Positions 6,948-34,282 are shown, counted from the first letter of the stretch. The stretch is DNA of 35,106 nucleotides from a virus (IMGVR_UViG_3300027278_000024:1-35106); one strand, 5' to 3'. The notes: a model not told the origin generated them from the sequence alone. A program made the numbers and translations.

Positions 6948-7553
6948 ATGGCTGATCTCGAATATCGAGCGAAGAAGAATCTTTCTCTGCGTTGCCAAAG
7001 CGGCGAGCCTGTCTCGCTGGTCGGATACGCGTCAACCTTTGACAGCCCATACGAGGTTGAGGGCATGATCGAGACTGTGCATCGAAGCGCGTTCGATCGA
7101 ACGCTGCGCGAGATGCCTGATGTCTTCGCGCTTGTCTCGCACGACCCGGGTCGGGTGGTTGGCCGAACGACGAACGGCTCGCTGGCCCTTCGATCCGATG
7201 ACAACGGCCTGCATGTCACCCTGACTCCGATCGACACGCAGGAGGGTCGCGATCTCGCTACTCTCGTGCGAACCGGAACGATCGACTCGATGTCGTTCGG
7301 CTTCATCGTGAAGGATGACAAGATCGAGATGCGCGATGGTCGCATGCACAGGCAGATCAGGGATCTGGAACTGCACGAGGTGAGTTGCGTTGCGTTCCCT
7401 GCCAACAGTCAGGCTCGAATCTCTGCTCGATCGAAGCAGCGAGCCGACGAGATCGCGCGGAGCGCGGTCTCGCAGATCAGACTCGAACGGATGCGGAGGC
7501 TTCTGATCCTGCCGATCCACAACATTGGAGGCTCGACGAATGGCACTGTCTAA
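6948..7553 (+). CDS. HK97-family prohead protease (peptidase S78)
   Basis: GYASTF, SHD (catalytic His), MSFGF (catalytic Ser), LHEVSCVAFPA. Confidence 0.95.
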   Translation: MADLEYRAKKNLSLRCQSGEPVSLVGYASTFDSPYEVEGMIETVHRSAFDRTLREMPDVFALVSHDPGRVVGRTTNGSLALRSDDNGLHVTLTPIDTQEGRDLATLVRTGTIDSMSFGFIVKDDKIEMRDGRMHRQIRDLELHEVSCVAFPANSQARISARSKQRADEIARSAVSQIRLERMRRLLILPIHNIGGSTNGTV

Positions 7554-8634
7554 CTCGAACAACGGGCAACTGGCTCCGCGCACGATCGCTGAGGCTGCGT
7601 GGACGCGGCTCTACGATTCGTTCCCGCTCAACCTTGTGAGTCGCGCTACTGGCCCGCGCGGTTTCATTCAGCCAGCGAGCACGAACGCTGCTGATGGGAC
7701 GATTCAGTATCTGTCCGAGGCAACGGCTCAGGGAGCAGAGAGCACTTTTCAGCCGACGATCAATCAGAAGTCTGATGATCTTGAGACCTACCGCGCGAGC
7801 GTTCTCGTGTCGAATCAACTGCTGGCGGACTCGCGCGTGCTGGAGTTCATCGGCGCGCGTCTCGCGGGTCAGATCATCGAGCGCGTCGCGCGTGATACCG
7901 TCCTCGCAATCGCCACAGCCCTCAAAGATGCAAGTCGATTCTCTGAGTACAATCACTTCGATGTCGGAGCGGTTGGCGTGACTGGTACTGCCAAGATCGA
8001 GGATCACACCGGGTTCAAGGCTCTGTCCAACCTGTCGAATACCTACCGCTCTCGCGCTTGCTGGGTGTTCTCTCAGACTGGTCTCCAGAACTGGGGCACG
8101 CAGGAAGGTCGAATCAACCTCGTTACTCTCGGAGTTCGTCAGGAAGATGGCGCGTATCGTCGCGTCATCGGAGAGCCGATGAGTTCGGAGTCGCTGCTTG
8201 CTGGCGGTGGCGGTGGCGGTGGCGGTGGCGGCGGCGGAGGTGGTTTTGTCGGCGGTGGCGGCGGTGGTGGTATTGGCGGTGGTGCTGGCGGCAATCTGGG
8301 CGGTGGCGCAGAGCAGGCAGGCAGCGGCCTGACGCTCGAAAGTCGAGCGAAGTTGGTGTCGAAGACTCCGACGACCGATCAGTGGCACACCGCGTATCTC
8401 GGATGCCCCGTCTACACATCGACTGGCCTCTCTGCGACTCACAACGAACTCGATGGAGTGTGGATGCTTGTCGCAGACATGTCTGCGTATCTGCACTTCG
8501 ATCAGCCGCTGTCTGTGCGGCTGGACACTGAGAGCCGTATCGCACAAAATCAGACTGTTATCCATGCCGCGTACCGTGCGGGTGGAGCGTTCATGGAACC
8601 GACAGCGGGATGGGCAATCGTCTCACCCGCGTAA
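7540..8634 (+). CDS. Divergent HK97-fold capsid-like protein with poly-Gly insertion
   Basis: GGAGG RBS. Collinear blocks with the MCP: VSNQLLAD/VSNELLAD, YRSRACWV/YRANAKWV, YLGCPV/LLGYPV, AQNQT/ANNQT. Confidence 0.75.
   Translation: MALSNSNNGQLAPRTIAEAAWTRLYDSFPLNLVSRATGPRGFIQPASTNAADGTIQYLSEATAQGAESTFQPTINQKSDDLETYRASVLVSNQLLADSRVLEFIGARLAGQIIERVARDTVLAIATALKDASRFSEYNHFDVGAVGVTGTAKIEDHTGFKALSNLSNTYRSRACWVFSQTGLQNWGTQEGRINLVTLGVRQEDGAYRRVIGEPMSSESLLAGGGGGGGGGGGGGGFVGGGGGGGIGGGAGGNLGGGAEQAGSGLTLESRAKLVSKTPTTDQWHTAYLGCPVYTSTGLSATHNELDGVWMLVADMSAYLHFDQPLSVRLDTESRIAQNQTVIHAAYRAGGAFMEPTAGWAIVSPA
8203..8308 (+). repeat. GGC/GGT low-complexity tract encoding poly-Gly
   Basis: ggcggt iterations encoding GGGGGGGGGGGGGGFVGGGGGGGIGGGAGGNLGGG. 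Confidence 0.9.
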
Positions 8635-10288: not shown

Positions 10289-10863
10289 AGTCTGCCGCTC
10301 CAGTCACGGAGCCAATCACGCTTGCTGAGGCCAAGTTGCATTGCCGCGTTGACGCGTCCGACGATGACACGCTGCTGACTCGGCTCATCACCGTTGCGCG
10401 CCAGTACGCGGAGCGCGCAACTGGCAGAGCGTTTGCGTCGCGGGCATTCACCATGACGATGACATCGTTCCCGCCAAGCGGCGGAGACATCGTTCTTCCG
10501 GCGGCTCCGCTCACCGCAGTCGCGAGCGTTGCCTATTACAACTCGGCAGGATCTCTGGTGACGATGGTCGTCGGTACGGATTATCGAGTCTCTGTGAATC
10601 CGATCCCCGGGCGCATTCGCTTGCCAGTTGCGACGAGCGTGAACGGCGGAGTGTGGCCGGAGACAGCCGCAGTCGATGACGCTGTGCAGATCTCGTACAC
10701 GGCTGGAGCGTCTGTCGAGACAGCCAAGCACGCCATGCTCCTGCTGATCGGACACTGGTACGAGAACCGAGAAGAGGTCGTCGGTGGTGAGACTGGATCT
10801 CAGATCGAGTTGGCCGCCAGAGCACTTCTGGGCCAGTTGCGATCTCGCGAGGTCATGCCGTGA
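10258..10863 (+). CDS. Head-tail connector (gp6-like / phiE125 gp8 type)
   Basis: EPITLAEAKLHCRVD and AMLLLIGHWYENRE motifs. Confidence 0.93.
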   Translation: MRPYPTTRSVESAAPVTEPITLAEAKLHCRVDASDDDTLLTRLITVARQYAERATGRAFASRAFTMTMTSFPPSGGDIVLPAAPLTAVASVAYYNSAGSLVTMVVGTDYRVSVNPIPGRIRLPVATSVNGGVWPETAAVDDAVQISYTAGASVETAKHAMLLLIGHWYENREEVVGGETGSQIELAARALLGQLRSREVMP

Positions 10864-12157: not shown

Positions 12158-12538
12158 ATGGCCGTATCTAGTCAAGGAATCACTCTCAGCACGGGCACGC
12201 TCGTCGGCGAGATCACTGCGATCTCCTTCAGTGGTGTCTCGGTCGCGGAGATTGATGTGACCTCAATCAGCGACACTGTGAAGAAGTATGTCACGGGCAC
12301 TCTCGATGGAGGTACGGTGGAAATCACCGCCAACTTCACGACTGCTCCGACGATGCCTTCGCAGGGCGCGGAAACTCCGTCATCGTTTGGTATCACCATC
12401 CCGACCACTACGCCAACCGTGCTTTCGATCACGGCGTTTGTCGTCGGCATGTCGATCGACGCGTCCGTCGATCAGCAGGTCGTCGTCAAGTACACCCTCC
12501 GCATCTCGAACAGCGTGCTCGGCACGACCAACGCCTAA
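12158..12538 (+). CDS. Tail tube protein, paralogue 1 (126 aa)
   Basis: EIDVT..D..KKYVTG..DGGTV motif typical of siphophage tube proteins. Confidence 0.85.
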   Translation: MAVSSQGITLSTGTLVGEITAISFSGVSVAEIDVTSISDTVKKYVTGTLDGGTVEITANFTTAPTMPSQGAETPSSFGITIPTTTPTVLSITAFVVGMSIDASVDQQVVVKYTLRISNSVLGTTNA

Positions 12539-12550
12539 AGGAGAACCGAC

Positions 12551-12931
12551 ATGGCTCTTTCTAGTCAAGGAACACTCTTTACGACTGGTGGTGTGGTTGG
12601 TGAAGTCACCGCCATCTCCGTCAGTGGCGTGTCGGTCGCGGAGATTGATGTCACCGCGCTCGCTGATACGGTCAAGAAGTATGTGACCGGAACTCTCGAC
12701 GGCGGTACGGTGGAGATCACCGCAAACTTCACTGCGGCTCCAACTATGCCTCAGCATGGTGCTGAAACTCCGTCGCAGTTCACGATCACATGGGGCGGAA
12801 GTGTCGCTCAGACCTTCTATGCCTTCATCGTCGGCATGTCGATCGACGCATCTGTCGATCAGCAGGTCGTCGTCAAGTACACACTGCGAGTCAGTCATCA
12901 GATCATGGGAGTCGGCTCCGCACCCGCGTGA
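12551..12931 (+). CDS. Tail tube protein, paralogue 2 (126 aa)
   Basis: AAGGAG RBS; close paralogue of 12158-12538. Confidence 0.85.
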   Translation: MALSSQGTLFTTGGVVGEVTAISVSGVSVAEIDVTALADTVKKYVTGTLDGGTVEITANFTAAPTMPQHGAETPSQFTITWGGSVAQTFYAFIVGMSIDASVDQQVVVKYTLRVSHQIMGVGSAPA

Positions 12932-21559: not shown

Positions 21560-21823
21560 ATGAACGGAGACGGCACGGCTTCAAGGACGGTAGCCGCGTG
21601 GGTGCAGGTCGCTGTATTCGCGCTCGGGCTTGGCGGTCTCGCTGTGTCGATCGGTCGCAAGGACGCGACGATCGACCAGCACTCTGGTCAACTCACTGAA
21701 CTGAAGTCCATCACGGCTGATCTCGTCCGCGCTCAACTGAGCCTGAGTGGAAACGATCAGGTGACAGCGCAGCGACTTCAAGAACTGGAGCGTCGCCTTG
21801 CCACGCTTGAAGCCAAGCGATAA
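21560..21823 (+). CDS. Single-TM coiled-coil membrane protein (possible lysis accessory)
   Basis: Hydrophobic VAAWVQVAVFALGLGGLAVSI followed by a coiled coil; start could instead be GTG at 21542. Confidence 0.6.
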   Translation: MNGDGTASRTVAAWVQVAVFALGLGGLAVSIGRKDATIDQHSGQLTELKSITADLVRAQLSLSGNDQVTAQRLQELERRLATLEAKR

Positions 21824-22733
21824 GCAGAAGCCGCTTCCGTTTCGCGTCGTTGAGAAGTCGCGGAACATCCATATCGTCGAGATGGAGGCAAGCGCGCGCG
21901 GCGGTTGGGAGCAATGGTATCTGCTCCGATCGGACGCGCACCATGACAACCCGCACAGCGACCACGATCTTGAGCGCAAGCACCTTCGCGAGTGCGAGCA
22001 ACGCAATGCTGGGTGGATTGATTTTGGTGATGCCTTCTGTGCTATGGCGGGCAAAGCAGATCCACGACGCGCCAAGCACGGCGTGACTCGCGACGAGCAC
22101 GCAATCGCGAACGATTACTTCGACTCTCTGGTGAGACACGCAGCGGACTTCTATGCGCCACACGCGCGCAGGTGTGTCCTGCTGTGTCGCGGAAATCACG
22201 AGACAGGAGTTCTCAAGAATCAGGAAACGGATCTCACTGAGCGGCTCGCCGAACGGCTCAGTGAGCGACTCGGATCTCCGGTGATGACTGGTGGCTACGG
22301 TGGCTTCATCCAGTTCAGAACGAAGGTAGCCAACACCGTGCACACTCTGACGATGGCCTACTTTCACGGCTCGGGTGGTGGCGGCATGATGACCTTCGAT
22401 ACCCTTCGAGTTCGTCGGCAAGCGTCGTTTCAACCCGACGCTGATGTGTTGGTGTGCGGTCATGTGCACGAGCGATGGTGGCTCCAGACGGCTCGCTATC
22501 GACTGCGGACGAACAACGGCATGTACCGAGTGACTGTCGAGCCGCAGCACCATGTGCGAACTGGCACTTACAAGCAGGAGCACGGCGACTCATTCGGCGG
22601 ATGGGCTGTCGAAAAGGGAATGCCGCCGAAGCCGATTGGTGCGATCTGGATGCGCCTCTATATGAAGCACATCGAGAAGGTGAATGGCATCTCCATCTGG
22701 AGACTCGAATGCGAGTTCCACGAGGCATCCTGA
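21798..22733 (+). CDS. Calcineurin-like metallophosphoesterase
   Basis: SDAH, FGD, GNHE, HG and GHVH motifs in canonical order. Confidence 0.88.
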   Translation: MPRLKPSDKQKPLPFRVVEKSRNIHIVEMEASARGGWEQWYLLRSDAHHDNPHSDHDLERKHLRECEQRNAGWIDFGDAFCAMAGKADPRRAKHGVTRDEHAIANDYFDSLVRHAADFYAPHARRCVLLCRGNHETGVLKNQETDLTERLAERLSERLGSPVMTGGYGGFIQFRTKVANTVHTLTMAYFHGSGGGGMMTFDTLRVRRQASFQPDADVLVCGHVHERWWLQTARYRLRTNNGMYRVTVEPQHHVRTGTYKQEHGDSFGGWAVEKGMPPKPIGAIWMRLYMKHIEKVNGISIWRLECEFHEAS

Positions 22734-23550: not shown

Positions 23551-23583
23551 CCCGCGTTTCCCATGCAGGAAACGCGGGCTTTT
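23551..23583 (+). terminator. Intrinsic terminator ending the late operon
   Basis: 11-bp stem cccgcgtttcc/ggaaacgcggg followed by ctttt. Confidence 0.75.
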
Positions 23584-23590
23584 GCATGGG

Positions 23591-23619
23591 TTGACCCTAC
23601 CTTCCCCATCGGGTAATAT
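23591..23619 (+). promoter_or_regulatory. Sigma70-type promoter
   Basis: TTGACC (23591-96), 17-nt spacer, TAATAT (23614-19), directly after a terminator. Confidence 0.8.
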
Positions 23620-23625
23620 CCGTGT

Positions 23626-24114
23626 GTCAGGTTCTTTGACAAGTGAGGCACTGGAACGGCAAACGAGCCGCGCGCCCCGAACGGCGCATCGCGGCTCGGC
23701 GAACGGGACGACCGACACGACAGGTCGAATAAGGCGACAACGCTGAAGACGCTTCCCGAAACGATCACCAAGCCGCTCTCTCCCGGACAGACTTTGTGCG
23801 AGTCGATCACCTAACGGAGTCCACTGAGAGAGCAGATCATCGAGCCGCCAGAAACTCGGAAGCCCAAGAGACCGAGCCTGCCTCACGACGACAAGCAAGC
23901 GCGAGTCCGACAGACTCAGTAAAGCCAGCACCTCTAGCGAAGAGCAACGACGAGGCCAGCATGGTGGGAACGGTCGGGACGAAGCGACGAACAGAGCGAC
24001 GAGCATCAGCAAGTGGGACGACCCACCTATGCCAGACCAGTGTGAGTGTGACGCACGAGGCGAGGCGCGGTGAAGTGCTCGGAGCGGAGAACCTGAAGCG
24101 CAACGAACGCAAGA
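23626..24114 (+). ncRNA. Putative large structured non-coding RNA / leader
   Basis: No credible ORF. Long-range stem gtgaggca 23643-50 / tgcctcac 23879-86 encloses several nested helices, with A-rich linkers. Confidence 0.6.
23631..23642 (+). promoter_or_regulatory. boxA-like (NusB/NusE) antitermination site
   Basis: GTTCTTTGACAA, 10/12 identical to rrn boxA GCTCTTTAACAA, a few nt after the predicted start site. Confidence 0.65.
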
Positions 24115-24210
24115 AACAGAACAAGCCACGCCGACCTTCGGTCAGGAGGGTCGGCTGGCCTGCGCTGTTGCAGGAGACACTGACTCGAACGCGGCGCACG
24201 CCGCAAGGAG
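24115..24210 (+). repeat. Structured intergenic element, copy 1
   Basis: aacag-5nt-gcca-c-stem-tggc; cctgc-gctgtt-gcagg; gcggc/gccgc hairpin; AAGGAG. Confidence 0.85.
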
Positions 24211-24216
24211 AACGCC

Positions 24217-24447
24217 ATGACGAAGGCCAAGAAGGTCACGAAGGTCAACACGAAGAAGTTCAAGAAGGTCAAGGTTCGCCTCACTGGCACAGACGGCAAC
24301 GCCTTCGCTGTGCTCGGCAAGGTTGGCAGAGCACTCAAGGCCGCTGGCGCGACGGCGAAGGAGGTCAACGCCTTCTACAAGGAAGCGATGGCTGGCGACT
24401 ACCTCACGCTGCTGGCGACGGCGATGAAGTGGGTCACTGTCACCTGA
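24217..24447 (+). CDS. Hypothetical phage protein (LTGTDGNAF...GDY motif)
   Basis: Strong RBS, genome-typical codons. Confidence 0.85.
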   Translation: MTKAKKVTKVNTKKFKKVKVRLTGTDGNAFAVLGKVGRALKAAGATAKEVNAFYKEAMAGDYLTLLATAMKWVTVT

Positions 24448-24538
24448 CGGGACGAGACACGCACGCTCGCTCGCGCGAGCGTGCTGTCCCGCATCGTCGC
24501 GGGTTCACTACCTCGAACGCGGCGCATGCCGCAAGGAG
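24445..24538 (+). repeat. Structured intergenic element, copy 2
   Basis: tgacgg-5nt-gaca-c-gcacgctcgc/gcgagcgtgc-tgtc; cccgc-atcgtc-gcggg; gcggc/gccgc; AAGGAG. Confidence 0.9.
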
Positions 24539-24544
24539 TTCACT

Positions 24545-24877
24545 ATGCGATTCGTGAGGAACCAAAACCGAAAGCAGCAAGAGCGCGTGCTGCTCGACAC
24601 CGTTGTTCGCAAGGCTGCGGAAGTCGGGTTCAAGGTGACGGCTGTGTACGACGGAGAGGAGTGGGTGAAGTTCGAGACCACGCCCACGCCGGAAGAACTG
24701 GCTCGTGTGGCCTTCGCAACGGACGACGCTCAGGTGCAGTTCAACGGCAAGCAGTGGGTGTTCTTCGTCTGGGGCAACGGTGTCGATGCCGCAACTGACT
24801 GGGGCGTTGGCAACGAGGCGTTCGCGAAGGCCGTCGAGGAGGCGACGCAACAGGTGTACGAGGCGTTCGCGCCTTGA
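24545..24877 (+). CDS. Hypothetical protein
   Basis: RBS supplied by the repeat; typical codons. Confidence 0.82.
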   Translation: MRFVRNQNRKQQERVLLDTVVRKAAEVGFKVTAVYDGEEWVKFETTPTPEELARVAFATDDAQVQFNGKQWVFFVWGNGVDAATDWGVGNEAFAKAVEEATQQVYEAFAP

Positions 24878-24969
24878 CGGGACTCGCCACGCACGCTCGC
24901 TCACGCGAGCGTGCTGGCCTGCATCGTCGCAGGATTCACTACCTCGAACGCGGCGCACGCCGCAAGGAG
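24875..24969 (+). repeat. Structured intergenic element, copy 3
   Basis: Same architecture; gcca/tggc and cctgc-atcgtc-gcagg. Confidence 0.9.
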
Positions 24970-24976
24970 TTCACAC

Positions 24977-25327
24977 ATGGCACGGCTCTACGCTCTCATC
25001 AACGAATGCGCTCGCAAGACCACGCCGACCGCTCGCGCGCACTACCAAGTGGCGGCGACTGTGAAGAACTGGGAGTACGCGGTGGAGGCTCGCATCGACC
25101 GCGCGAAGACAGAGGCTCAGGATCAGTTGACGCTGCGCGTCACCAACCTGCGGACGCGCGAGACGGTTGAGGTCGCAGCGGACGAGATCGCGAAGGTGTT
25201 CGCTGCTGCGAAGGCGAAGCAGCAGCGCGCTGCGAAGAAGGCGGCGAAGCGCGCCGCCGAGGAGGCTGCACTGACCCGAGCCGTCATCGAGGAGCCGTGG
25301 CTGGCTGCTCAGGTGCTGGCTGCTTGA
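24977..25327 (+). CDS. Hypothetical protein
   Basis: ATG at 24977 after AAGGAG. Confidence 0.8.
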   Translation: MARLYALINECARKTTPTARAHYQVAATVKNWEYAVEARIDRAKTEAQDQLTLRVTNLRTRETVEVAADEIAKVFAAAKAKQQRAAKKAAKRAAEEAALTRAVIEEPWLAAQVLAA

Positions 25328-25424
25328 CGGTCGCACGCCAGCGCAAACATTCAAGTTTCTTGAATCCTTATGCCTGCATCGTCGCAGGAGACACTGACTC
25401 GAACGCGGCTCATGCCGCAAGGAG
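25325..25424 (+). repeat. Structured intergenic element, copy 4 (divergent first stem)
   Basis: tgacggt; attcaag/cttgaat stem; cctgc-atcgtc-gcagg; gcggc/gccgc; AAGGAG. Confidence 0.85.
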
Positions 25425-25430
25425 TTCACT

Positions 25431-25775
25431 ATGGCTCTCTACTGGGATCTCACTCGCATCAAGAACTACAAGGTCGTGGCGATCAATCCAGAAACGCTCC
25501 ACCCGTTTCAGACGGTTGAGGAACTGATCTACCTCACCATGAAGATCGGACTTGCCGGGGTGACGGAGAAGAATGTCGAAGAGTGGAAGTGGCGACTCGC
25601 CTTCCTGTGGAACACCGGGGGGAACGACTTCTACACGAAGTTCAACACGGAGTTCCTGAAGGGGCTGGTCGGACTCACAACGAATGCGACGCAACTCACT
25701 CGCGCTCAGTGGATCAAGAAGTGGCTGAAGAATCAGACGCTGGAGGCTGACTACCAAGCGCGCAAGTGGGAGTAA
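25431..25775 (+). CDS. Hypothetical protein
   Basis: RBS and typical codons. Confidence 0.82.
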   Translation: MALYWDLTRIKNYKVVAINPETLHPFQTVEELIYLTMKIGLAGVTEKNVEEWKWRLAFLWNTGGNDFYTKFNTEFLKGLVGLTTNATQLTRAQWIKKWLKNQTLEADYQARKWE

Positions 25776-25787
25776 TGGATGAACCCG

Positions 25788-25868
25788 TAACGGCTTCGGC
25801 TTACCGCTCTCTTCGGAGAGCGGGACGGCCTGCTCCGTTGCAGGAGACACTGACCTCAAGCAAAAGGA
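25788..25868 (+). repeat. Structured intergenic element, copy 5 (lacks the last hairpin)
   Basis: aacgg; ccgctctc-ttcg-gagagcgg; cctgc-tccgtt-gcagg; agacactgac. Confidence 0.85.
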
Positions 25869-25874
25869 AACACC

Positions 25875-26096
25875 ATGACCACACCTCTTCCGATCCTTCG
25901 CGATGGCCTTGAGTGGAAGCCCGGGACTTGCATGTCTTGCGGTGAAGTCGGCCATGTCTTGCACGACCGCGACGCAACCGTGGAAACGCACGCTGGCGAC
26001 GGTGATGGATGCTGTCCCGCATGCTGCACCGCTCTGTGGACTCTGATGACGAATGACTTCACCGAGCGAGTGGAAGCACCGTGGCGTGAATACTGA
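25875..26096 (+). CDS. Small zinc-finger-like protein (CxxC...CCxxC)
   Basis: AAAGGA RBS; CMSC and CPAC motifs. Confidence 0.7.
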   Translation: MTTPLPILRDGLEWKPGTCMSCGEVGHVLHDRDATVETHAGDGDGCCPACCTALWTLMTNDFTERVEAPWREY

Positions 26097-26131
26097 ACTT
26101 TCGAGGCACAGCCTCAGATTGGAGAACGCAA

Positions 26132-26359
26132 ATGGAACGCAACACTGAATGCAAGCGCGCTAGCCGTGATCGTGCACGCAACATCCGCAACCTGAAGAAG
26201 TACGGATACGAGGCGTGCAAGATCTGCTGGGAGACCTGTGTGATCCGTGGAGAAGGCCCGACCATGCAGTCGATCAACTCTGGCCTGCACTTCAACGCGA
26301 CATCTGCCGCAATCGCGGCCTACGCCTTCGCGCTGCGCGAGGCCGGAGTGAGGAACTGA
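26132..26359 (+). CDS. Hypothetical protein
   Basis: GGAG RBS preceded by a gaggc/gcctc hairpin. Confidence 0.7.
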   Translation: MERNTECKRASRDRARNIRNLKKYGYEACKICWETCVIRGEGPTMQSINSGLHFNATSAAIAAYAFALREAGVRN

Positions 26360-26450
26360 CGGCTCGCGCCCCACCGCTCTCTTCGGAGAGCGGGACGGCC
26401 TGCGCTGTTGCAGGAGTTACTACCTCGAACGCGGCTCATGCCGCAAGGAG
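26357..26450 (+). repeat. Structured intergenic element, copy 6
   Basis: tgacggc; cUUCGg stem; cctgc-gctgtt-gcagg; gcggc/gccgc; AAGGAG. Confidence 0.9.
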
Positions 26451-26456
26451 TCGAAC

Positions 26457-26885
26457 ATGGCGCGTTACACGCCGACATACTGGAACTGCAAGGGCGAACT
26501 TCAGGAGGTGTACGACATGCTGCACAAGGCTATCGTGCCTGAGACTGGTCGCGCGCCAACGCCGCACGGCAACGCGCTGCGGCAAGTCGCGAATCTGTAT
26601 CACGAGGTCTACAACAACGGCGGCGGCAACGCTGCTGGGCAGAACGGTTTTGGTCTCAACCAGAGGTACAAGGATGCGATCGCTGCTGTCGTCGAAGGCG
26701 CAGCACTGGAGCCGGAGGATGCAAAGGTGCTGCGCCGCGCTCTTGTGCGCGGAGACGAGATGTGCAAGGGCGAGATGCCGAAGACAGCCCGACGCTTGGA
26801 TGAAGTTGTGACGAAGGTCGTTCGACACGCGCTGGCTCAGACGCTGGCGACGATCAAGCGACCCAAGAACAACCGCGAACTGTGA
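26457..26885 (+). CDS. Hypothetical protein (YWNCKG...LY..VYNNG.GN)
   Basis: RBS and typical codons. Confidence 0.82.
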   Translation: MARYTPTYWNCKGELQEVYDMLHKAIVPETGRAPTPHGNALRQVANLYHEVYNNGGGNAAGQNGFGLNQRYKDAIAAVVEGAALEPEDAKVLRRALVRGDEMCKGEMPKTARRLDEVVTKVVRHALAQTLATIKRPKNNREL

Positions 26886-26901
26886 AAGAAAGGAGACAGC
26901 C

Positions 26902-27081
26902 ATGACTGCCAAACTGATCGCATACGAGAACGGTGAACTGAACGAAGAGGAGACTCTGAATCTCTTCGAGGAGTTGGTTGCGACTGGCCTCGCGTGGACG
27001 CTGCAAGGTGCATACGGTCGCACCGCGCAAGCGTTGCTGGAGGCTGGCTTGATCGGCCTGCGAGCAGCAGGCGTGAACTGA
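26902..27081 (+). CDS. Small conserved phage protein, 59 aa (IAYENGEL...LVATGLAWTLQGAYGRTA); absent from the ORF track
   Basis: AAAGGAG RBS, ATG at 26902, TGA at 27079-81. Confidence 0.85.
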   Translation: MTAKLIAYENGELNEEETLNLFEELVATGLAWTLQGAYGRTAQALLEAGLIGLRAAGVN

Positions 27082-27172
27082 CGGCACAAGACACGCACGC
27101 TCGCGCATGCGAGCGTGCTGTCCTGCATCGTCGCAGGATTCACTCACAAGAACGCCGCGAAGCGGCAAGGAG
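27079..27172 (+). repeat. Structured intergenic element, copy 7
   Basis: gaca/tgtc; cctgc-atcgtc-gcagg; last hairpin flipped to gccgc-gaa-gcggc; AAGGAG. Confidence 0.9.
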
Positions 27173-27178
27173 AGCACT

Positions 27179-27385
27179 ATGAAGAAGAAGGCAAAGATCT
27201 GGCTCACGCACAACGGCGACCCGTATGTCCGAGGGTTCACTGGTACTGAAGAGGCCGATGATGGACGCACCTTCTACCGTGGAGATCTGGGAGTGCAGAC
27301 GCGCGATTGGTGGCGCGCGTATGCACGAGCGAACGGTTACGAACTCGGCGAGGTGCGCCCGTTCAAGAAGGCGCGCCGCGCGTAA
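27179..27385 (+). CDS. Hypothetical protein
   Basis: ATG at 27179 after AAGGAG. Confidence 0.78.
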   Translation: MKKKAKIWLTHNGDPYVRGFTGTEEADDGRTFYRGDLGVQTRDWWRAYARANGYELGEVRPFKKARRA

Positions 27386-27420
27386 GCACACGCCGCTCAT
27401 GCGGCAGAAAGGTCACTGAC

Positions 27421-27681
27421 ATGAAGACGATTCGGATCATCGGACTCGAACGACTGATGGAGGTGTTGGACGACGACGGCTCGCTGGCTGTTCGCGAGCA
27501 GTCTGAGGTGGCAGAACTGTTAGGCATCTCGCGCCACGCAGTCTCGTATCACGAACGCTCGGCGAAGGAGAAGATCGCGCACGCGATCCGAGAACTGGCT
27601 GCTGGAATGAGGCTGGAGCATGGCGGCGTAGCCGCGCGTGTGCTGGCTCGCTCCGGTCGCAGGAAGGCTGGTGCTCGATGA
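27421..27681 (+). CDS. HTH DNA-binding protein (sigma region 4-like)
   Basis: QSEVAELLGISRHAVSYHERSAKEKI; GAAAGG RBS. Confidence 0.75.
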   Translation: MKTIRIIGLERLMEVLDDDGSLAVREQSEVAELLGISRHAVSYHERSAKEKIAHAIRELAAGMRLEHGGVAARVLARSGRRKAGAR

Positions 27682-28160
27682 CAGCCGGAGAGGATCGGTG
27701 TCTCAAGCAGGGCATCCTGCTCGGGCACGCCATCGCTGTTGTGTTTCAGATGGGTGGAGGAGAGGAGATGCAGACCGGATGGTCGTTCGTCTCTTACGGA
27801 GAGACTCCGATGCGCGCGAGCGATCGGATCCTTCGTGTCGGGCCGCTTCGATCATTCGTGTCTGTGTCTGGCGTTGAGTTCTTCGGAGTTGCTGGAGGCG
27901 GCGTTCAGGAACTCCTTGATCGCATGGCTGGCTCTGATGAGTTCAGGAACGAGCGCGATGATGCTGATGGAGTGCGAGACCTGTCGTGCGATCTCGCCTT
28001 CATGCGCGGCTTCGGTCTCACCCTGAGTGAGTACGGCATTCGACCAACGGTCGAGCAGCAGCGAATCGAAGGCTCGAACACCACAACATATCTGCTCGCA
28101 GCAGTGAAGCACGAGCAGCGAAAGGAGGTGCGTCATGCCGATGGGCCGCGCGCACATTGA
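27678..28160 (+). CDS. Hypothetical protein
   Basis: ATGA overlap with the upstream gene. Confidence 0.65.
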   Translation: MTAGEDRCLKQGILLGHAIAVVFQMGGGEEMQTGWSFVSYGETPMRASDRILRVGPLRSFVSVSGVEFFGVAGGGVQELLDRMAGSDEFRNERDDADGVRDLSCDLAFMRGFGLTLSEYGIRPTVEQQRIEGSNTTTYLLAAVKHEQRKEVRHADGPRAH

Positions 28161-28428
28161 GTTCATCAGATACTGCGTGAGATCGAAGGCCCGTCGAGAC
28201 ATGAAGGCCAAGCCGCACTACGCGGCAGACGCGCTTCGTCGTCTTCGGATTGCCGACGACTGTGATCGCATCATGCAGATGCTGTCACGGAACTGGCGAG
28301 CCGAGCCTCACGAGGTGGCGACGATGCTTGGATGGCAACCTCCACTCGTGCTGTTCGAGGGAAGCCTGAACGATGCCGCGCAGCAATGGCTGGATGCGAG
28401 GCATGCGGACTGGAGAGGGTCGCCGTGA
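28135..28428 (+). CDS. Hypothetical protein
   Basis: AAAGGAGGT RBS before ATG at 28135. Confidence 0.7.
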   Translation: MPMGRAHIEFIRYCVRSKARRDMKAKPHYAADALRRLRIADDCDRIMQMLSRNWRAEPHEVATMLGWQPPLVLFEGSLNDAAQQWLDARHADWRGSP

Positions 28429-28526
28429 CGGAACGCGCCACGCACGCTCGCTCACGCGAGCGTGCTGGCCTGTGCCGTGTGGTGCAGGTGCTTGATTCAA
28501 CACGATGCCAAGCGCATCAGAAAGGA
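28426..28526 (+). repeat. Structured intergenic element, copy 8 (divergent 3' half)
   Basis: tgacgg-5nt-gcca-c-gcacgctcgc/gcgagcgtgc-tggc; cctgt...gcagg; gatgc/gcatc; AAAGGA. Confidence 0.8.
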
Positions 28527-28533
28527 CACTGCT

Positions 28534-29412
28534 ATGACAGTTGCAAAGTGGAATGAAGTGAAGGTCGGAGACTCGCGCCTCGTGCTGCACTGCGGAGCAC
28601 ACGCGGTCACGGAGAACGAGGTGTTCGCGTCGATCACGCCGGAGGCCACGGAGTCGCACTTCCCGATCCCGCACTCGATGCTGCTCCAGAGCGTGACGAA
28701 CACGCTCTCGGATCTGGGTTGGGCCGTTCGCGAATCGGCGCACGCGCTGATGAATGACGGCGCGCGATACTTCGGTCTGCTCGCGATCCGACCGAAGGTC
28801 GAGTCGTCTGTGCTCGCCATCTCCGGTGACGGCACATTCGACTGGGTGATCGGTCTCCGCAACGCGCACGACAAGGCGTTCAGCGCGGACGGGATGCTCG
28901 GCAATCGCGTGTTCGTGTGCGACAACCTCGCGTTCAGCGGAAGGGCTGGAAGCGTGTTTCACTTCGCTCGCAAGCACACGCGCTACATCGAGCGCGATCT
29001 GCCGGGACTGGTTGCTGGGTCGTTCGGCAACATGGCGCGCGCGATGCACGACGAGAAGCGTCGTGTCGAGGTGTATCGAGCGCACGAGATCGGAGACGAC
29101 GATCAGGTGCACGACTTTATGATTCGTGCGATGGATCGTCGTGCGATCACTCCGCAGCAACTTCCGCATGTGCTGAAGGAGTGGCGGCGCGATGACGGCC
29201 CGGGTGGTCTGGGCGAAGCCGCTCGTGAGCGAGACCCGGCCTTCGAGGCTCGCACTGCTTGGAGGCTGCTGAACTGCTTCACCGAGGTGGAGAAGCAGCG
29301 GCCATCGCCCGTCGCGAGCCCCGCTCGCAACGCGCGTCTGGTTGGTCTGCTCGATGGCCTCGTCGGCCTGTCGAGCAGCGCGGATACGGTGATCGACGCT
29401 GAGGTCGCCTGA
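28534..29412 (+). CDS. DUF932-like phage/plasmid protein
   Basis: TESHFPIPH, GLRNAHD, RVFVCDN, RKHT and TAWRLLNCFTE motifs. Confidence 0.75.
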   Translation: MTVAKWNEVKVGDSRLVLHCGAHAVTENEVFASITPEATESHFPIPHSMLLQSVTNTLSDLGWAVRESAHALMNDGARYFGLLAIRPKVESSVLAISGDGTFDWVIGLRNAHDKAFSADGMLGNRVFVCDNLAFSGRAGSVFHFARKHTRYIERDLPGLVAGSFGNMARAMHDEKRRVEVYRAHEIGDDDQVHDFMIRAMDRRAITPQQLPHVLKEWRRDDGPGGLGEAARERDPAFEARTAWRLLNCFTEVEKQRPSPVASPARNARLVGLLDGLVGLSSSADTVIDAEVA

Positions 29413-29416
29413 TACA

Positions 29417-29464
29417 GAACAAGGCGGAGGTGCGGTGGGTCATCCACGCACCTCCGCCTGTTCG
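29417..29464 (+). other. Long hairpin (terminator or processing site)
   Basis: aggcggaggtgc...gcacctccgcct inverted repeat; no clear U tract. Confidence 0.5.
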
Positions 29465-29520
29465 TACCGCTCCGAACAACGGCGTTCGGAGTCTAGCCAC
29501 TAACAACACGAAGGAGAACT

Positions 29521-29721
29521 ATGAACACTGAAATGGTCACGACGCGCGATGTGGCTGATGCGTATGGAGTCTCGATCCGTCGCATCAATCAGATCGCGAA
29601 CAAGCGAGGCATCGAGCCTCGCAAGGCAGGGCATGTCAACCTGTGGACAGCGCGTCAGGCTCGGCTGCTGAAGCCAGAGCGATCGGCGCATCTGTCGAAG
29701 CGGATTGGAGGCGCGCGATGA
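29521..29721 (+). CDS. Small HTH (excisionase/MerR-like) DNA-binding protein
   Basis: TTRDVADAYGVSIRRINQIA; AAGGAG RBS. Confidence 0.78.
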   Translation: MNTEMVTTRDVADAYGVSIRRINQIANKRGIEPRKAGHVNLWTARQARLLKPERSAHLSKRIGGAR

Positions 29722-30623
29722 TTACAGACAAGCAGCGTGAGGCTCGGATGAAGTCGCTGGGATCGAGCGACGCGCCAGTGATTCTCGGCGTTGATCCATT
29801 CCGAACGCCATACGATCTCTGGCTACAGAAGACATCGCGAGTTCCACAGACGAAGGAGAACGACGCGATGCGGCTTGGAAGCGTGCTGGAGATTCCGTTG
29901 CTGCAACTGGCTGGCGAGCGCATCGGCGCGCGTGTGGTCAGACCGAGCAGCGCATTCGTAGGTTGCTACCCGTACCTCAAGGCCAACATTGACGGCATGG
30001 TTGGAGAGGCGAAGCGAGGCTCGGACATCGTTGAGGTGAAGACGACGAGCAGCACCGAGGGTTGGGGAACTGAGGGAACCGATCAGGTTCCTGATCGCGT
30101 GCGAGTGCAGGTGGCGTTCCAGATGTCGTGCGCGAGCGCGAATCTGGCGCACATCGCCTGCCTCACTGGAGCCTTCGGTCTTCAGTTCAAGATGTACAGG
30201 ATTCCGTATGACGCGGACTTCTGTGGGTATGTGATGGAACGGTGTGACGCATGGTGGCGCAAGCACATCGAGGGCGGAGAGCCGCCGCCAGAGCGAGGAA
30301 CGCTCGACCTGCTCAAGCAGGTGCGCCGCACGGATGAGGCGGTGAACTTGGATCCGGCACTGTTCGAGGAAGAGCGTCGGCTCGCATCGGCACTGGCAGA
30401 TGCGGAGAAGGCGCATGAGGCTGCGAAGGCGCGGCTCGTCACTGCACTTGGATCTGCTCGTCGCGGATTCGGTGGTCAGCACTCGATCAGCGTGATCGAG
30501 GTCGAGACTGACAGATTCGATCGCAAGGCATTCGAGGCGGAGCACGCCGATCTGGCTCGACAGTATGTCGTGCCGTCGTCGTACTCTCGCATCGACATTC
30601 GCACCAAGAAGGAGAAGCCATGA
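29718..30623 (+). CDS. YqaJ / lambda-exonuclease family recombination nuclease
   Basis: LGSSDAPVILGVDPF.TPYDLW..K, G..LE, ANIDG, EVKT and QVAFQM motifs. Confidence 0.93.
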   Translation: MITDKQREARMKSLGSSDAPVILGVDPFRTPYDLWLQKTSRVPQTKENDAMRLGSVLEIPLLQLAGERIGARVVRPSSAFVGCYPYLKANIDGMVGEAKRGSDIVEVKTTSSTEGWGTEGTDQVPDRVRVQVAFQMSCASANLAHIACLTGAFGLQFKMYRIPYDADFCGYVMERCDAWWRKHIEGGEPPPERGTLDLLKQVRRTDEAVNLDPALFEEERRLASALADAEKAHEAAKARLVTALGSARRGFGGQHSISVIEVETDRFDRKAFEAEHADLARQYVVPSSYSRIDIRTKKEKP

Positions 30624-31387
30624 CACGCACGAAGGACAAGATCGTTGAGCACATGAACGCACCCAACCAGCACGCGATCGACCTCAAGGAAGAGATCGAC
30701 AGCCAGACTCGCACTTGGGAATGGCGACTGGTCGCGGCTCAGGCCGCGATGTCTCGCGTGGTGAAGGACTCACGCGTTGCATTCGGCAACCAGCGATACG
30801 CCTACACGAGCGCGGAGGACATGATCGGCGCGTGCCGCGAAGCACTTCTCAGTGCGGGCCTCGCACTGACGCGCTCGTGGGACATCGTTCACTCTGAGCA
30901 TGGGACTGTGGTGCTGAGTCACTTCTCGCTGCACCACACGAACGGAACGGTGTCGATGGGATCGTGCCCCTTCCCTGTCATCGGACAGAACGGAAAGGGT
31001 GAGGACAAGAGTGTTGCTACCGCACTGACGAGTTCGCTGGCGTACTTCCTTCGTGACCTGCTGATGGTTCCGAAGGAGGACGACGCGCAGCAGATGGTCA
31101 AGGCTCCAGAGATGGATGCGCGTGACGACCGAACTCAGAATGGCGCGCAGGTGATTGGCGTTCAGGGCACAGTCGCGCTGCTTCGGAAACTCAAGGCGGC
31201 GAATGCGACCGTCGCTGAGGTCGTCGAGGTGATGGCGAAGGCGGGACTGCATCCGCCAGAGAATCTTGAGCAGTGGCCTCGCACGCTCCTGCCTCGAATC
31301 GACAAGTGGCTTGAGAAGCGCGTGGCAACCGTTGACAGTGGAAAAATCTCGGATTCACCACAGCAGGCGGCTGGAGTCGAGGCATAA
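30620..31387 (+). CDS. ERF-family ssDNA annealing protein
   Basis: VVKD......Y.YTSAED...REAL...GL and DKSVATALT..LAYFL..LL.VP.EDD; paired with the exonuclease. Confidence 0.8.
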   Translation: MTRTKDKIVEHMNAPNQHAIDLKEEIDSQTRTWEWRLVAAQAAMSRVVKDSRVAFGNQRYAYTSAEDMIGACREALLSAGLALTRSWDIVHSEHGTVVLSHFSLHHTNGTVSMGSCPFPVIGQNGKGEDKSVATALTSSLAYFLRDLLMVPKEDDAQQMVKAPEMDARDDRTQNGAQVIGVQGTVALLRKLKAANATVAEVVEVMAKAGLHPPENLEQWPRTLLPRIDKWLEKRVATVDSGKISDSPQQAAGVEA

Positions 31388-31712
31388 TGCTCGACCCCAT
31401 CTGATCGCCATCGCTCTCATGGCGCGACTCCTCAGGGAGTGAGAGCAGCGAGCCGACATCGCTTCGTTCAGGTCGATCGCGCCAGTGTGCTGATGTGCAC
31501 ACGCTGGCAGAGTCAGGGATGTGGCGACTACCCTGATCCGCTCTAGTAGAGCGCGCTCCACAGTACAGGAAGCGACTGCACAGCGAGCAGTGAAATGGTG
31601 AGATGTACTGCATGCGACCGATGCCGTGACAAGCAACGCGCCGCAGGCGACCGAGTAGTTGGGTCGCCTGCTCACTCCGCCGCAACAAGCAAACGAACGG
31701 AAGGATTCGATC

Positions 31713-32552
31713 GTGAAGAAGAAGAAGCAGATGGGTGTGATCGAGACTGGTACGCAAGAGATTCCGCTGACGAGCCTGACTCTCGTAGCGGACACGCAGG
31801 CTCGAACTGGGCTGCGTGAGAATGTGCTGGAGGACTACGCGGAGGCGATGCGCGATGGCGCAAAGTTCCCTCCGATCAGTGTGGTGTCCGATGGCTCGAC
31901 GACATGGGTCTGGGATGGTTGGCATCGCGTGGTTGCTGCTCGCAGCATCGACGCGAATGCTGACATCGCGGCAAGCGTCATTCACGGAACGCTTGACGAT
32001 GCGATCTGGTTGGCCGCGTCTGCCAATCGAACGCATGGATGCAGGCGCACCAACACCGACAAGGTGCGTGCGCTGATGCTGGCTCTACGCGTCAGGCCAG
32101 ACGAGTCTCTCCGCGTGATCGCCGAGTGGTGCGGCGTATCGCACGAGATGGTCAGGCAGTACAAGCAGAGCCTGCAAGCCTCAGCAGAGATCGAGCAGGC
32201 TGCTGTGGAGGTCGCAGACGGTCAGGGTGTCGAAGTGATCGAGGAAGGAACGCCAGTGTCGCAAGCGATGTCTGGTGCTCAGGCCGCGATCTCTCTCGTC
32301 TTGAAGGCGATTGATGCTCTGGAGACGAAGGTCGAGGCTCTCGCAGACTCGAAGCACGGAGCGTGGATCAATCGCCAGTCTGTGATGAGCGATATCTCGA
32401 ACGCTCGGAGCGCAGTCGCCCACGCGGCTCCGCACGAGCAGTGCCCGGTGTGTGTGGGATCCGGGTGCGCGACCTGCCGTGAACTCGGTTGGGTGTCACG
32501 CAAGCAGTGGCAACTCATTCCGAAGCGGAAGACTGGTGAACGCGGCAACTGA
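31713..32552 (+). CDS. ParB-like N-terminal domain protein with HTH and C-terminal CxxCxGxGCxxC zinc finger
   Basis: FPPISV...DGWHRV, AN..HG, SLRVIAEWCGVSHEMV, CPVCVGSGCATC; GTG at 31713 after AAGGA. Confidence 0.8.
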   Translation: MKKKKQMGVIETGTQEIPLTSLTLVADTQARTGLRENVLEDYAEAMRDGAKFPPISVVSDGSTTWVWDGWHRVVAARSIDANADIAASVIHGTLDDAIWLAASANRTHGCRRTNTDKVRALMLALRVRPDESLRVIAEWCGVSHEMVRQYKQSLQASAEIEQAAVEVADGQGVEVIEEGTPVSQAMSGAQAAISLVLKAIDALETKVEALADSKHGAWINRQSVMSDISNARSAVAHAAPHEQCPVCVGSGCATCRELGWVSRKQWQLIPKRKTGERGN

Positions 32553-32579
32553 GGTTGTCGCTGATCGAGGTGGAACTGG

Positions 32580-32613
32580 GACGGCGGGTGATTCACGGGA
32601 ATCATCCGCCGTC
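32580..32613 (+). other. Hairpin between the ParB-like and helicase genes
   Basis: gacggcgggtgattc-acgg-gaatcatccgccgtc. Confidence 0.55.
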
Positions 32614-32635
32614 TCTCATTACCGAAAGGGCAAGC

Positions 32636-34282
32636 ATGGAACTTCGCAAGTATCAGGACGACGCTGTGCGCGCGGCGATGGAATCGCTGCGCGGTGGCGG
32701 CTCGACACTGCTCGTGATGGCAACTGGTCTGGGCAAGACGGTCGTGTTCTCTGAGATCATTCGGCGATACATGGCTCAGGGCACTGGCAGGCGCGCGCTG
32801 GTGCTGGCGCATCGAGCCGAACTCATTCATCAGGCTGCGGAGAAGATCCGCGCGATCGTTGGATGCGATGTCGAGATCGAGATGGGAGATCTGCGAGCGC
32901 ATGAGGATCGCTTCTACCGCGCTCCTGTCGTCGTGAGCAGCGTGGCTACTCAGGTCGCCGGGAGCGGTGATCGGAAGCGCATGCACAAGTTCAACCCTGA
33001 GCACTTCGGGATTGTCGTCGTCGATGAGGCGCATCACGCTGTCGCTGGATCGTATGAGCGAACGCTCGCGCACTACATGCAGGGCAACCGTTGCAGGCTG
33101 CTTGGAGTGACTGCGACTCCCGATCGAGCCGACGAGATTGCGCTCGGCAAGGTCTTTGGCTCAGTGTGCTTCGAGTACGGGATCAGGCAGGGCATCGAGG
33201 ATGGCTGGCTCGCTCCGATCATGCAGCGAATGGTCAGTGTGCGATCGTTGGACTACAGCCAGTGCCGCACGACCGCTGGAGATCTGAACGGCGCAGACCT
33301 CGATGGAGTGATGCAGTACGAGGAGACCCTGCATGGGATGGTGTATCCGACGATCGAGATCGCTGGAGACCGTCGCGGACTCATCTTTGCGGCCAGTGTG
33401 GCGCACGCGGATCGCGTCGCCGAGATCATCAACCGACACCGTGCCGGGTCTGCTGTCTCTGTCAACGCATCGACTCCGGCAGACGATCGAAGGAACCTGT
33501 TCCGTGGATTCTCCGAGGGTCGATACCAGTGGCTCGTGAATGTGGGTGTGGCTACCGAGGGCTGGGATGACTCGGCACTCGATCGGCGCGGCGTGCAGAT
33601 CGTCGCGATGATGAGGCCAACCAAGTCACGCGCTCTGTACTCGCAGATGATCGGTCGCGGCACGAGGCCGCTTCCGGGCTGCGTCGATGGGATCGAAGGG
33701 GCAGATGCGCGCCGTCGAGCGATCGCATCGAGCGCGAAGCCTCACATCACGGTGCTCGACTACTGCGGCAACGCTGGCCGCCATCGCTTGGTTCACTGTG
33801 CAGACGCGTTGGCTGGCAAGGATCGAGATGTGATTGCCGACCGCGCTGGTGCTGCGATGCGTCGTGATGCCGTGGACGCTGATGTGGATGTGCTCGCGCT
33901 GATGACGCGCGAGGAGGCTGAGTTGAAGCGCGAGCAGGAGGCCGAGCGTCGTCGAGGGCTTCGGGTGAAGGCCGCATATGTGAGCGCGCTGATCGACCCA
34001 TTCGCTCTAGTCGATCTCGCTCCTGATCGACAGCAGGCATGGGAGAAGGGGATCCCTGCATCGGAGAAGCAGTTGAGTGTGCTCCGTAGGCTGAAGGTTG
34101 GAATCCCTGACAGGCTCACGCGCAAGGAGGCGAGCAGGTTGATCGACGCGGCGATCTCGACACCGACACCGAAGCAGTCTGCTGTGCTGCTGAGGGCTGG
34201 ACTCGATCCAGCGAACTACGACAGGCGATCTGCCAGCGCGGCGATCGACCAGATCATGCAAGGCAAGGAGGCAACCAGATGA
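32636..34282 (+). CDS. Superfamily 2 (DEAH) DNA helicase
   Basis: LRKYQ, MATGLGKT, VDEAHH, VTATP, TEGWD and QMIGRGTR; ATG at 32636 after AAAGGG. Confidence 0.95.
   Translation: MELRKYQDDAVRAAMESLRGGGSTLLVMATGLGKTVVFSEIIRRYMAQGTGRRALVLAHRAELIHQAAEKIRAIVGCDVEIEMGDLRAHEDRFYRAPVVVSSVATQVAGSGDRKRMHKFNPEHFGIVVVDEAHHAVAGSYERTLAHYMQGNRCRLLGVTATPDRADEIALGKVFGSVCFEYGIRQGIEDGWLAPIMQRMVSVRSLDYSQCRTTAGDLNGADLDGVMQYEETLHGMVYPTIEIAGDRRGLIFAASVAHADRVAEIINRHRAGSAVSVNASTPADDRRNLFRGFSEGRYQWLVNVGVATEGWDDSALDRRGVQIVAMMRPTKSRALYSQMIGRGTRPLPGCVDGIEGADARRRAIASSAKPHITVLDYCGNAGRHRLVHCADALAGKDRDVIADRAGAAMRRDAVDADVDVLALMTREEAELKREQEAERRRGLRVKAAYVSALIDPFALVDLAPDRQQAWEKGIPASEKQLSVLRRLKVGIPDRLTRKEASRLIDAAISTPTPKQSAVLLRAGLDPANYDRRSASAAIDQIMQGKEATR

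Follow-up and report, generated by a model that had tools for sequence, protein, structure and literature searches.

Ribonucleases (RNases) E and G are described as scanning RNA from a 5' monophosphate; coaxial pairing, as in pseudoknots, impedes this scanning whereas plain stem-loops do not, the composition of the obstacle matters little, and (AC)n serves as a neutral spacer (PMC9943677). The boxA/Nus antitermination system of ribosomal RNA (rrn) operons is also used by CRISPR leaders (PMC5725501, PMC10250234, bioRxiv 10.64898/2026.07.09.737519). Here, we analysed a repeated intergenic element in the virus record IMGVR_UViG_3300027278_000024:1-35106, which has 35,106 nucleotides (nt), a G+C content of 60% and a tool-estimated completeness of 95%, and whose full length we call the window. 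Eight copies of the element punctuate an array of small genes, and an earlier inspection (hereafter the sequence-only reading) had described them as a conserved RNA pseudoknot. The function that we tentatively favour, at somewhat less than an even chance, is that of a cis-acting RNA that protects the individual cistrons of a long, antiterminated transcript against decay, probably by obstructing the scanning of RNase E/G. Neither the fold nor the plan of the operon seems to have been described, and the likeliest function is already of a known kind.

All eight predicted copies are present, and a covariance model for which 34 copies, including two of the window, served as training set finds each of them on the + strand, with scores of 78, 75, 66.5, 61.4, 52.3, 41.9, 31.6 and 18.4 bits. 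The single + strand match elsewhere reaches 17.7 bits; hence, what identifies copy 4 (18.4 bits) is not its score but the presence of hairpin B, the spacer and hairpin C. The layout comprises a 5' strand (P0), a 5-nt linker, a stem A of 10-14 base pairs (bp), a hairpin B with a 5-bp stem and a loop complementary to the P0 strand, a G-poor, C/A-rich spacer, an optional hairpin C, a Shine-Dalgarno sequence (SD) and an ATG. Copy 1 (24115..24216) lies between a leader RNA and gene 1; its P0 strand (24115-24119) pairs with 24165-24169, B starts at 24159, and hairpin C and a ribosome-binding site (RBS) follow. The next ones are copies 2 (24445..24544; P0 24446-24450 with 24494-24498) and 3 (24875..24976; 24876-24880 with 24924-24928), copy 4 with a degenerate stem A (25325..25430; 25326-25330 with 25379-25383), copy 5, devoid of hairpin C (25788..25874; 25789-25793 with 25835-25839), copies 6 (26357..26456; 26358-26362 with 26405-26409) and 7 (27079..27178; 27080-27084 with 27128-27132), and copy 8 (28426..28533; 28428-28431 with 28475-28478), which has an irregular B and precedes a DUF932 gene.

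The proposed pairing of the 5' strand with the loop of B is thus found at five of five positions in copies 1-7 and at four of four in copy 8. One correction concerns hairpin B, which is irregular in copy 8. Hairpin C, which had been counted as part of the element, is present in all copies except copy 5 and is better described as a separate module: it is absent from a whole lineage and stands alone at 27392-27405 on the + strand, where hairpin C and an RBS are present without a knot (27392..27420) before a gene for a helix-turn-helix (HTH) protein. In copies 2, 3, 4, 6, 7 and 8, the 5' strand starts within the TGA stop codon of the upstream open reading frame (ORF). Next to copy 5, a possible three-codon ORF (25779-25790) is preceded by an SD-like GGAG, and its TAA overlaps P0. 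Single-strand folding gave z-scores of -2.1 to -4.5 in seven copies and of -0.6 in copy 4; nested folds of single sequences pick either P0 and A or A and B.

Related phages were found by pattern and protein scans. A descriptor independent of P0, applied to 39 chosen loci, returned 113 distinct rows, of which 15 were dropped as weak or mis-called stems; the remaining 98 copies come from 35 loci, among which are several near-identical strains and a few loci on a shared contig, and copies 4 and 8 of the window escaped the descriptor. Across these 98 copies, compensatory changes occur in stems A and B and in P0, which bears out the covariation noticed among the eight window copies. The 50 copies with the canonical base of stem A contain 28 distinct P0/loop combinations, which form 4.32 of 5 pairs in register, versus 3.40 when permuted (maximum 3.93; 0 of 20000 permutations reached the observed value) and 1.07-2.64 in slid registers. 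All five P0 positions show at least two types of Watson-Crick pairs. In an alignment of 34 rows, 95.3% of the cells pair, versus 84.0% after shuffling and 25.6-51.1% in slid registers, and double-sided changes affect 13 of 23 pairs overall, including 4 of the 5 P0 pairs.

As these controls ignore relatedness and the B loop was partly preset in some of the search patterns, the fully swapped versions of P0 found in distant phages are the stronger argument. These are GAAGU/ACUUC, GCGAA/UUCGC, ACAGC/GCUGU, GACGC/GCGUC and ACGGU/ACCGU, and their B stems are CCUAC/GUAGG, CCAGC/GCUGG, CCCGG/CCGGG, CCUCC/GGAGG and CUUGC/GCAAG. Altogether, B occurs in eight stem versions, plus a ninth in L384. Both crossing helices of the proposed pseudoknot carry compensatory changes. 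We infer that P0 and B form simultaneously, as in a true pseudoknot rather than a two-state switch.

Stem A has 10-14 pairs, counted across bulges, in 96 of the 98 copies, and its pairs are 85% G-C; one lineage has only ~7 continuous pairs. The sequence of its base is conserved across lineages. The spacers consist of 74% A+C and 6% G. Of the 98 copies, 44 have a stem A that ends in a cUNCGg loop, every one of the four possible N bases being represented, and no such loop is found on the opposite strand. The stability of UNCG loops is a property of RNA; hence, their restriction to the sense strand indicates that the element acts as a sense RNA, as had been proposed. No unpaired position is invariant: an A occupies the first position of the B loop in 78 of 98 copies and directly follows B in 95 of 98. 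In the 34-sequence alignment, 16 columns are invariant, all of them helical except a bulged C, which the L386 copies lack. The upstream stop codon lies 31-64 nt before B in 84 of the 98 copies, and the other 14 have no upstream ORF stop in this range; first copies come after a boxA or a leader rather than after an ORF. In the first copies of L053, L064 and L297-L316, an additional hairpin carries the P0 strand in its loop, which makes the contact with B a loop-loop one.

The sense-only UNCG loops and the G-U pairs also argue against the element being a mere DNA-level cassette site, attC-like or PeSL-like, without a role as RNA, an alternative that we regard as highly improbable. What recommends it is that gene content and order vary among relatives and that contigs of close strains are joined at the repeats. 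In one contig, 570 nt are skipped and copies 5 and 6 are fused at a common stretch of 31 nt, another joins 24544 to 24977, a third steps back 450 nt between copies, and loose ends join the end of one gene to a different copy. The three contig joints were read from single contigs of eight sequencing runs at 80% likeness, so that some may be assembly artefacts, and two further deletions lie outside the elements. Homology alone, together with the YqaJ and ERF proteins of the phage, would explain them. In addition, the 26 window proteins scanned gave no match to an integrase family, and the core of the element is not conserved and its loops are of an RNA type, whereas integron attC sites are bottom-strand DNA hairpins with GTT/AAC cores that are served by an integron integrase. 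Nor are the copies PeSL cassettes, as the only + strand promoter lies upstream of the array and there is no + strand terminator at the copies. Gene shuffling at the repeats is probably a side effect, resembling that mediated by PeSL (PMC2839356).

In five near-complete relatives, the sense-strand matches to the model cluster in the array; outside of it, we found one clear copy, which precedes the gene for the helicase in G407, and a weak match of 15 bits in G403. The phages G403, G404 and G408 carry the element, and of 21 window proteins tested they share only the metallophosphoesterase. The presence of the element in lineages with a single tested protein in common suggests that phages have exchanged it as an expression module adapted to the host. 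The element does not generally accompany DUF932, since the model finds it in only 3 of 69 loci of DUF932 relatives, with partial matches in one more.

Several relatives provide natural variants of this arrangement. In G409, four genes have their own sigma70-like promoter directly before the spacer, hairpin C and RBS, without P0, A or B, and the internal genes keep the element. The near-identical promoters of this array (G409, locus L371) are located at 5534, 5850, 7061 and 7508, two of them after very G+C-rich repeated tracts. In L310, a promoter is followed by hairpin B alone, with a predicted transcript start 2-3 nt before B. In L384 and L385, promoter-fed genes begin with a different 5' hairpin and the knot is kept at internal genes. 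Finally, the arrays of L386, L387, L388 and L392 retain stem A, whose base is often unchanged; a short AUU linker and a hairpin of 9-11 bp come after it, with no consistent P0. In this sister element, stem A bears GNRA-type loops and the long hairpin a GCGU loop; it is possible, as a matter of speculation, that tetraloop-receptor packing takes the place of the pseudoknot. Taken together, the knotless promoter-fed genes, the tandem-hairpin substitute and the lack of an invariant unpaired base suggest that the element is needed where a cistron does not have its own primary 5' end, and that its shape matters more than its sequence. The small-gene array of G403 has, near its end (L363 5870-5990) and before an intrinsic terminator, a repeat of the CGTTGAAC type along with short tandem repeats, which are possibly an origin or a protein-binding array.

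The array is located behind an intrinsic-terminator-like hairpin at the end of the upstream (late) gene block (23551..23586, with 23551-23578 for the hairpin itself; + strand), and behind the sigma70-like promoter TTGACC-17-TAATAT (23591..23619, + strand), the only one found on the + strand between 22500 and 30000; on the basis of this position, it is likely an early operon. Relatives have an equivalent promoter at the same place. A TTGACA sequence considered as a second -35 box was rejected, as it has no -10 box downstream.

The motif GTTCTTTGACA (23631..23641, + strand) follows and is read as an rRNA-type boxA, a predicted site of Nus antitermination; it agrees with the consensus GYTCTTTAANA (PMC5725501) at 10 of 11 positions. 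TCTTTGACA is the sole 9-mer common to all three leader groups behind the promoter, and it is also found behind the promoter in phages without a leader. The window and six other records were compared: all but G409, which has none, carry it right behind the array promoter, and two records contain one extra match elsewhere. We examined 30 16S leaders of Planctomycetota: CTTTGACA occurs within 600 nt in nine of them, with one control match, and a GAAA variant in most others. The motif nevertheless does not name the host, because similar motifs occur in other phyla and Planctomycetota was picked on a guess. We identified no N-like protein in the boxA-headed operon.

The sequence-only reading had also offered antitermination as a function. 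The predicted antitermination signal, the boxA, is located outside the element. A rival explanation makes the element itself a transcription signal, i.e. a put-like booster, a pause signal or a Rho roadblock that renews antitermination along the operon. The boxA at the head of the operon is in keeping with it, and put and boxB are similar in size to the two adjacent stems and the 5-bp/5-nt hairpin. However, loop sequences vary within one genome, there is no U tract after B, and one lineage has its first copy only tens of nt behind boxA; we therefore consider this explanation improbable.

Between boxA and copy 1, the window codes for a structured non-coding leader RNA of 472 nt (23627..24098, + strand), the two ends of which form a long-range stem (23628-23635 with 24088-24095). 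The leader region contains 11% U, and no other 400-nt stretch of the + strand is poorer in U. There are leaders, homologous or analogous, of 368-427 nt in relatives (L011 4285-4672; L003 2099-2486; L019 5955-6322; L047 587-1013, - strand; L081 2678-3091) and others of ~600 nt behind boxA in L386 (4066) and L392 (3651). Double changes affect 21 of 112 predicted pairs in four group-A leaders and 14 of 107 in two group-B leaders. The window leader has two 3'-domain motifs in common with group A, and taken alone it folds modestly better than shuffled sequences (z -1.9). None of the thresholds tested yielded an Rfam match for it, and patterns made from leader motifs yielded no new leaders (7/7 and 9/9 new contigs inspected were unrelated). 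Some leaders carry repeated hairpins capped by AUGCGAC; beyond this recurring hairpin, nothing supported the leader as a CsrB-like sponge or a T-loop tRNA recogniser, and both were set aside. In G403, G404 and G408, the first element directly follows boxA, the leader is absent from that place, and a search with one leader as query did not reveal a homologue in other parts of these phages. The elements do not depend on the leader RNA, which is a second finding.

The proximity of a compact pseudoknot between cistrons to a large, ornate RNA with conserved pairing (the 21 doubly changed pairs of four sequences) could suggest a new ribozyme, with the element cleaving itself or being cut in trans by the leader. 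We find this very doubtful. There is no invariant unpaired base that could be a catalytic residue, no Rfam ribozyme matches, and the sister lineage does without a knot; moreover, three phages lack a leader before their first element, and only one 8-nt complementarity between leader and element was found in 20 comparisons. Self-cleavage, one of the functions put forward in the sequence-only reading, is accordingly disfavoured, as the sister lineage has two hairpins instead. A broader proposal, that the early operon mimics an rRNA operon, with boxA loading Nus, an ornate RNA of 370-600 nt and of a new class coming first and the knots acting as catalytic or RNA-processed punctuation that cuts out the cistrons, either as a new self-cleaving fold or as substrates of the leader, is in our opinion quite doubtful.

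Of the functions offered in the sequence-only reading, a nuclease block fits best, albeit probably against scanning by RNase E/G and not against RNase J or Xrn1. Under this favoured scanning-obstacle reading, host RNA polymerase would initiate at the sigma70-like promoter, and boxA would recruit the host rRNA-type Nus complex, giving a transcript of several kb that includes the untranslated leader RNA. Endonucleases cutting upstream would produce 5' monophosphates, at which RNase E/G would begin to scan in the 3' direction. The compact fold of A, B and P0 would form a coaxial obstacle and halt the scan just before the unstructured spacer and the SD, and stems A and B might also shield the upstream message from 3' exonucleases. 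Promoter-fed genes would need no knot because of their 5' triphosphate and 5'-terminal hairpin, and the repeats would, as a side effect, provide crossover points for gene gain, loss and reordering. The scanning-obstacle reading would explain the natural variants, the G-poor A/C spacers and the U-poor leader.

Several points weigh against it. The evidence for the knot itself has weaknesses, as the permutation controls leave the relatedness of the copies in place, P0 is weak in some copies (5 of the 28 combinations pair at three positions or fewer) and, with a free register and all classes included, the mean is 4.51 pairs versus 4.04 for other loops, a small margin. An L2 of 1 nt and an L3 of 0 nt should put the entry of the upstream strand at the P0/B junction, so that the discontinuity met by a scanning enzyme may be of only ~5 bp. 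Short knots are weak obstacles and tandem hairpins nearly inactive in the experiments that we draw on (PMC9943677), and one lineage uses tandem hairpins in the slot of the element. P0 overlaps the upstream stop codon or closely follows it, so that ribosomes terminating there would melt the helix. The nuclease inventory is conditional on the guessed host phylum, Planctomycetota, in which 40 of 41 genomes have an RNase E/G match over the cut-off; the corresponding figures are 58 of 61 for RNase III and 0 of 61 for RNase J. Lastly, the conserved sequence of the stem A base suits a protein-recognised processing site.

The latter feature leads to the rival that has the best claim among the alternatives, although we consider it rather unlikely, namely, a T7-style endonuclease processing signal. 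According to it, RNase III or another host enzyme nicks near the A/B junction of a quasi-duplex of 21-25 bp, made of stem A stacked on B and P0 or on the long B' hairpin of the tandem lineage, and releases the leader RNA and monocistronic messages starting with hairpin B. The near-constant helix lengths agree with this (notably that of stem A), as do the ~10 bp of B plus P0, which match the 9-11 bp of B', the position of copy 1 between leader and gene 1, the transcript start predicted just before B in L310 and the frequency of RNase III in the guessed phylum. The nutL-RNase III-N layout of phage lambda offers a parallel. There are five such signals in T7 (PMC3867540). However, GC/CG pairs are antideterminants for Escherichia coli RNase III (PMC1540722), and stem A is 85% G-C; this overall composition disagrees with the AU/UA pairs expected at the proximal and distal box positions, and the rules of E. 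coli may not be those of the host. The E. coli enzyme also needs a helix of 11 bp (PMC1540722); stem A has 10-14 pairs when counted across bulges, and ~7 continuous pairs in one lineage. Insulation and endonuclease processing are compatible readings: a cut upstream can be followed by protection by B.

The constant position of the element 5' of an unstructured spacer and SD, including one copy before the helicase gene of G407, also evokes a translation-initiation platform, in which the knot and the C/A-rich strand would bind S1/30S as a standby site and let internal cistrons initiate independently. The S1-dependent standby site of tisB consists of a pseudoknot and a single strand (PMC7708055). 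However, the SDs of the window copies are strong and largely accessible, unlike the sequestered RBS of tisB, and the tandem-hairpin lineage has no consistent P0, which makes this explanation unlikely.

This uncultured aquatic virus is, judging from its genes, a tailed phage with no close cultured relatives. Terminase, portal, protease, capsid and tape-measure genes are followed by small genes of mostly unknown function and then by DUF932, YqaJ, ERF, ParB-like and helicase genes. Its best capsid match among cultured phages is 32%, and the sole cultured-phage matches of the DUF932 protein are Salinibacter phages, at 28%. The array contains twelve small ORFs (24217..28428, + strand), mostly of unknown function, with phrog_1933, phrog_4158, DUF7417/phrog_3908 and an HTH protein among them. 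A protein family scan identified DUF932, HTH, YqaJ exonuclease, ERF annealase, ParB-like and helicase genes further along (28534..34282, + strand), likely in the same early unit. The elements stand before gene clusters rather than before each gene, with 8 elements for the 13 ORFs of 24217-29412. No tRNA or tmRNA was found in the window or in 13 related loci.

Other features of the record were noted. Behind DUF932, a long hairpin (~22 bp in the window) and a second hairpin, of a type unlike the element, are present at 29412-29520 and in L019 at 10560-10605. Three coding repeats of the Cys-Gly-Thr-Gly-Ala-Gly-Gly type (3558-3624, 4302-4368 and 5387-5453) are located in an enlarged portal gene (979 aa) and the next ORF; an ORF of 369 aa with a Gly-rich tract (7525-8634) lies between the protease and capsid genes; and small tail-region genes are in tandem duplicate (12203-12888; 194 nt at 78% identity). 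The metallophosphoesterase gene (21798-22733) is the most widely shared one, with 823 relatives at E <= 1e-20, and its product has about 50% identity in otherwise unrelated phage lineages. A search of 401 Planctomycetota genomes for this protein gave two weak matches only.

The element had been said to belong to no known family, and Rfam 15 indeed gave no match at the gathering score in the window and five related loci. In E-value mode, the window and the relatives' sequences gave either no match or matches far below gathering, including MIR535, guanidine-II and Lambda_thermo, which were rejected on that ground. We found no description of the element in the literature searched; an unnamed overlap is possible with 8,495 candidate RNAs from IMG/VR (PMC10690425), of which the part searched contained no match. 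Cellular genomes gave little: 73 pattern matches in genome contigs showed no element-like context by eye, and 151 Planctomycetota genomes, with 33 candidates scored per genome, gave five weak single matches to the model, at 24-29 bits. The 122 metagenome loci found by pattern are mostly chance matches.

These results define a new and well-supported family of RNA motifs. It comprises about a hundred natural variants, among which promoter replacement, hairpin B alone and the tandem-hairpin substitute are natural controls that make the function directly testable. The phages apparently borrow rRNA-type boxA antitermination, and the same operon carries a large structured RNA outside Rfam. Like rrn boxA (PMC5725501, PMC10250234, bioRxiv 10.64898/2026.07.09.737519), the phage motif equals a variant present in Planctomycetota 16S leaders, is found just behind the promoter and follows a hairpin or occupies the 5' strand of the closing stem; in contrast, it heads an operon of a large non-coding RNA and protein genes, and its Nus binding is predicted. 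The leader itself is a multi-branched phage non-coding RNA of several hundred nt, as are GOLLD, ROOL and OLE (PMC12286853, PMC5737381), but it has no Rfam match and no tRNA or tmRNA nearby, and it begins with a boxA.

As regards the element, PeSL cassettes of the T4-type phages RB49 and phi1 (PMC2839356) are likewise repeated intergenic modules among variable small genes, which are shuffled by recombination between copies; a PeSL combines a promoter and a terminator, whereas the elements are neither and alternate with promoters. The tisB standby site (PMC7708055) has a pseudoknot and a single strand before the RBS in common with the element, but its RBS is sequestered and it is single-copy. 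Exonuclease-resistant RNAs (xrRNAs) block 5'-3' exoribonucleases by a threaded ring fold; whether the host would have such an enzyme depends on its phylum, and in the guessed one RNase J is over the cut-off in 0 of 61 genomes. The RNase III signals of T7 (PMC3867540, PMC1540722) are structured elements that punctuate a polycistronic early phage transcript as well; they are long hairpins with AU-type determinants, whereas the elements are G-C-rich, partly short and pseudoknotted. Coaxial obstacles to RNase E scanning include pseudoknots and riboswitch aptamers (PMC9943677), and the element is like them in several respects: in both cases, a 5'-UTR (untranslated region) pseudoknot precedes an unstructured A/C-rich stretch and an RBS, and shape prevails over sequence. 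The knots examined in that work are viral or engineered ones of the H type, whereas the element has an embedded helix, an L3 of 0 nt and the form of a dedicated repeat, its activity being predicted. If the scanning-obstacle reading is true, the element would be a compact 60-nt part to stabilise cistrons in synthetic operons, and nature would have evolved it as a roadblock to RNase E scanning that is dedicated to this task and repeated. The obstacles with which we found this mechanism to have been tested are mostly riboswitches and viral or engineered structures.

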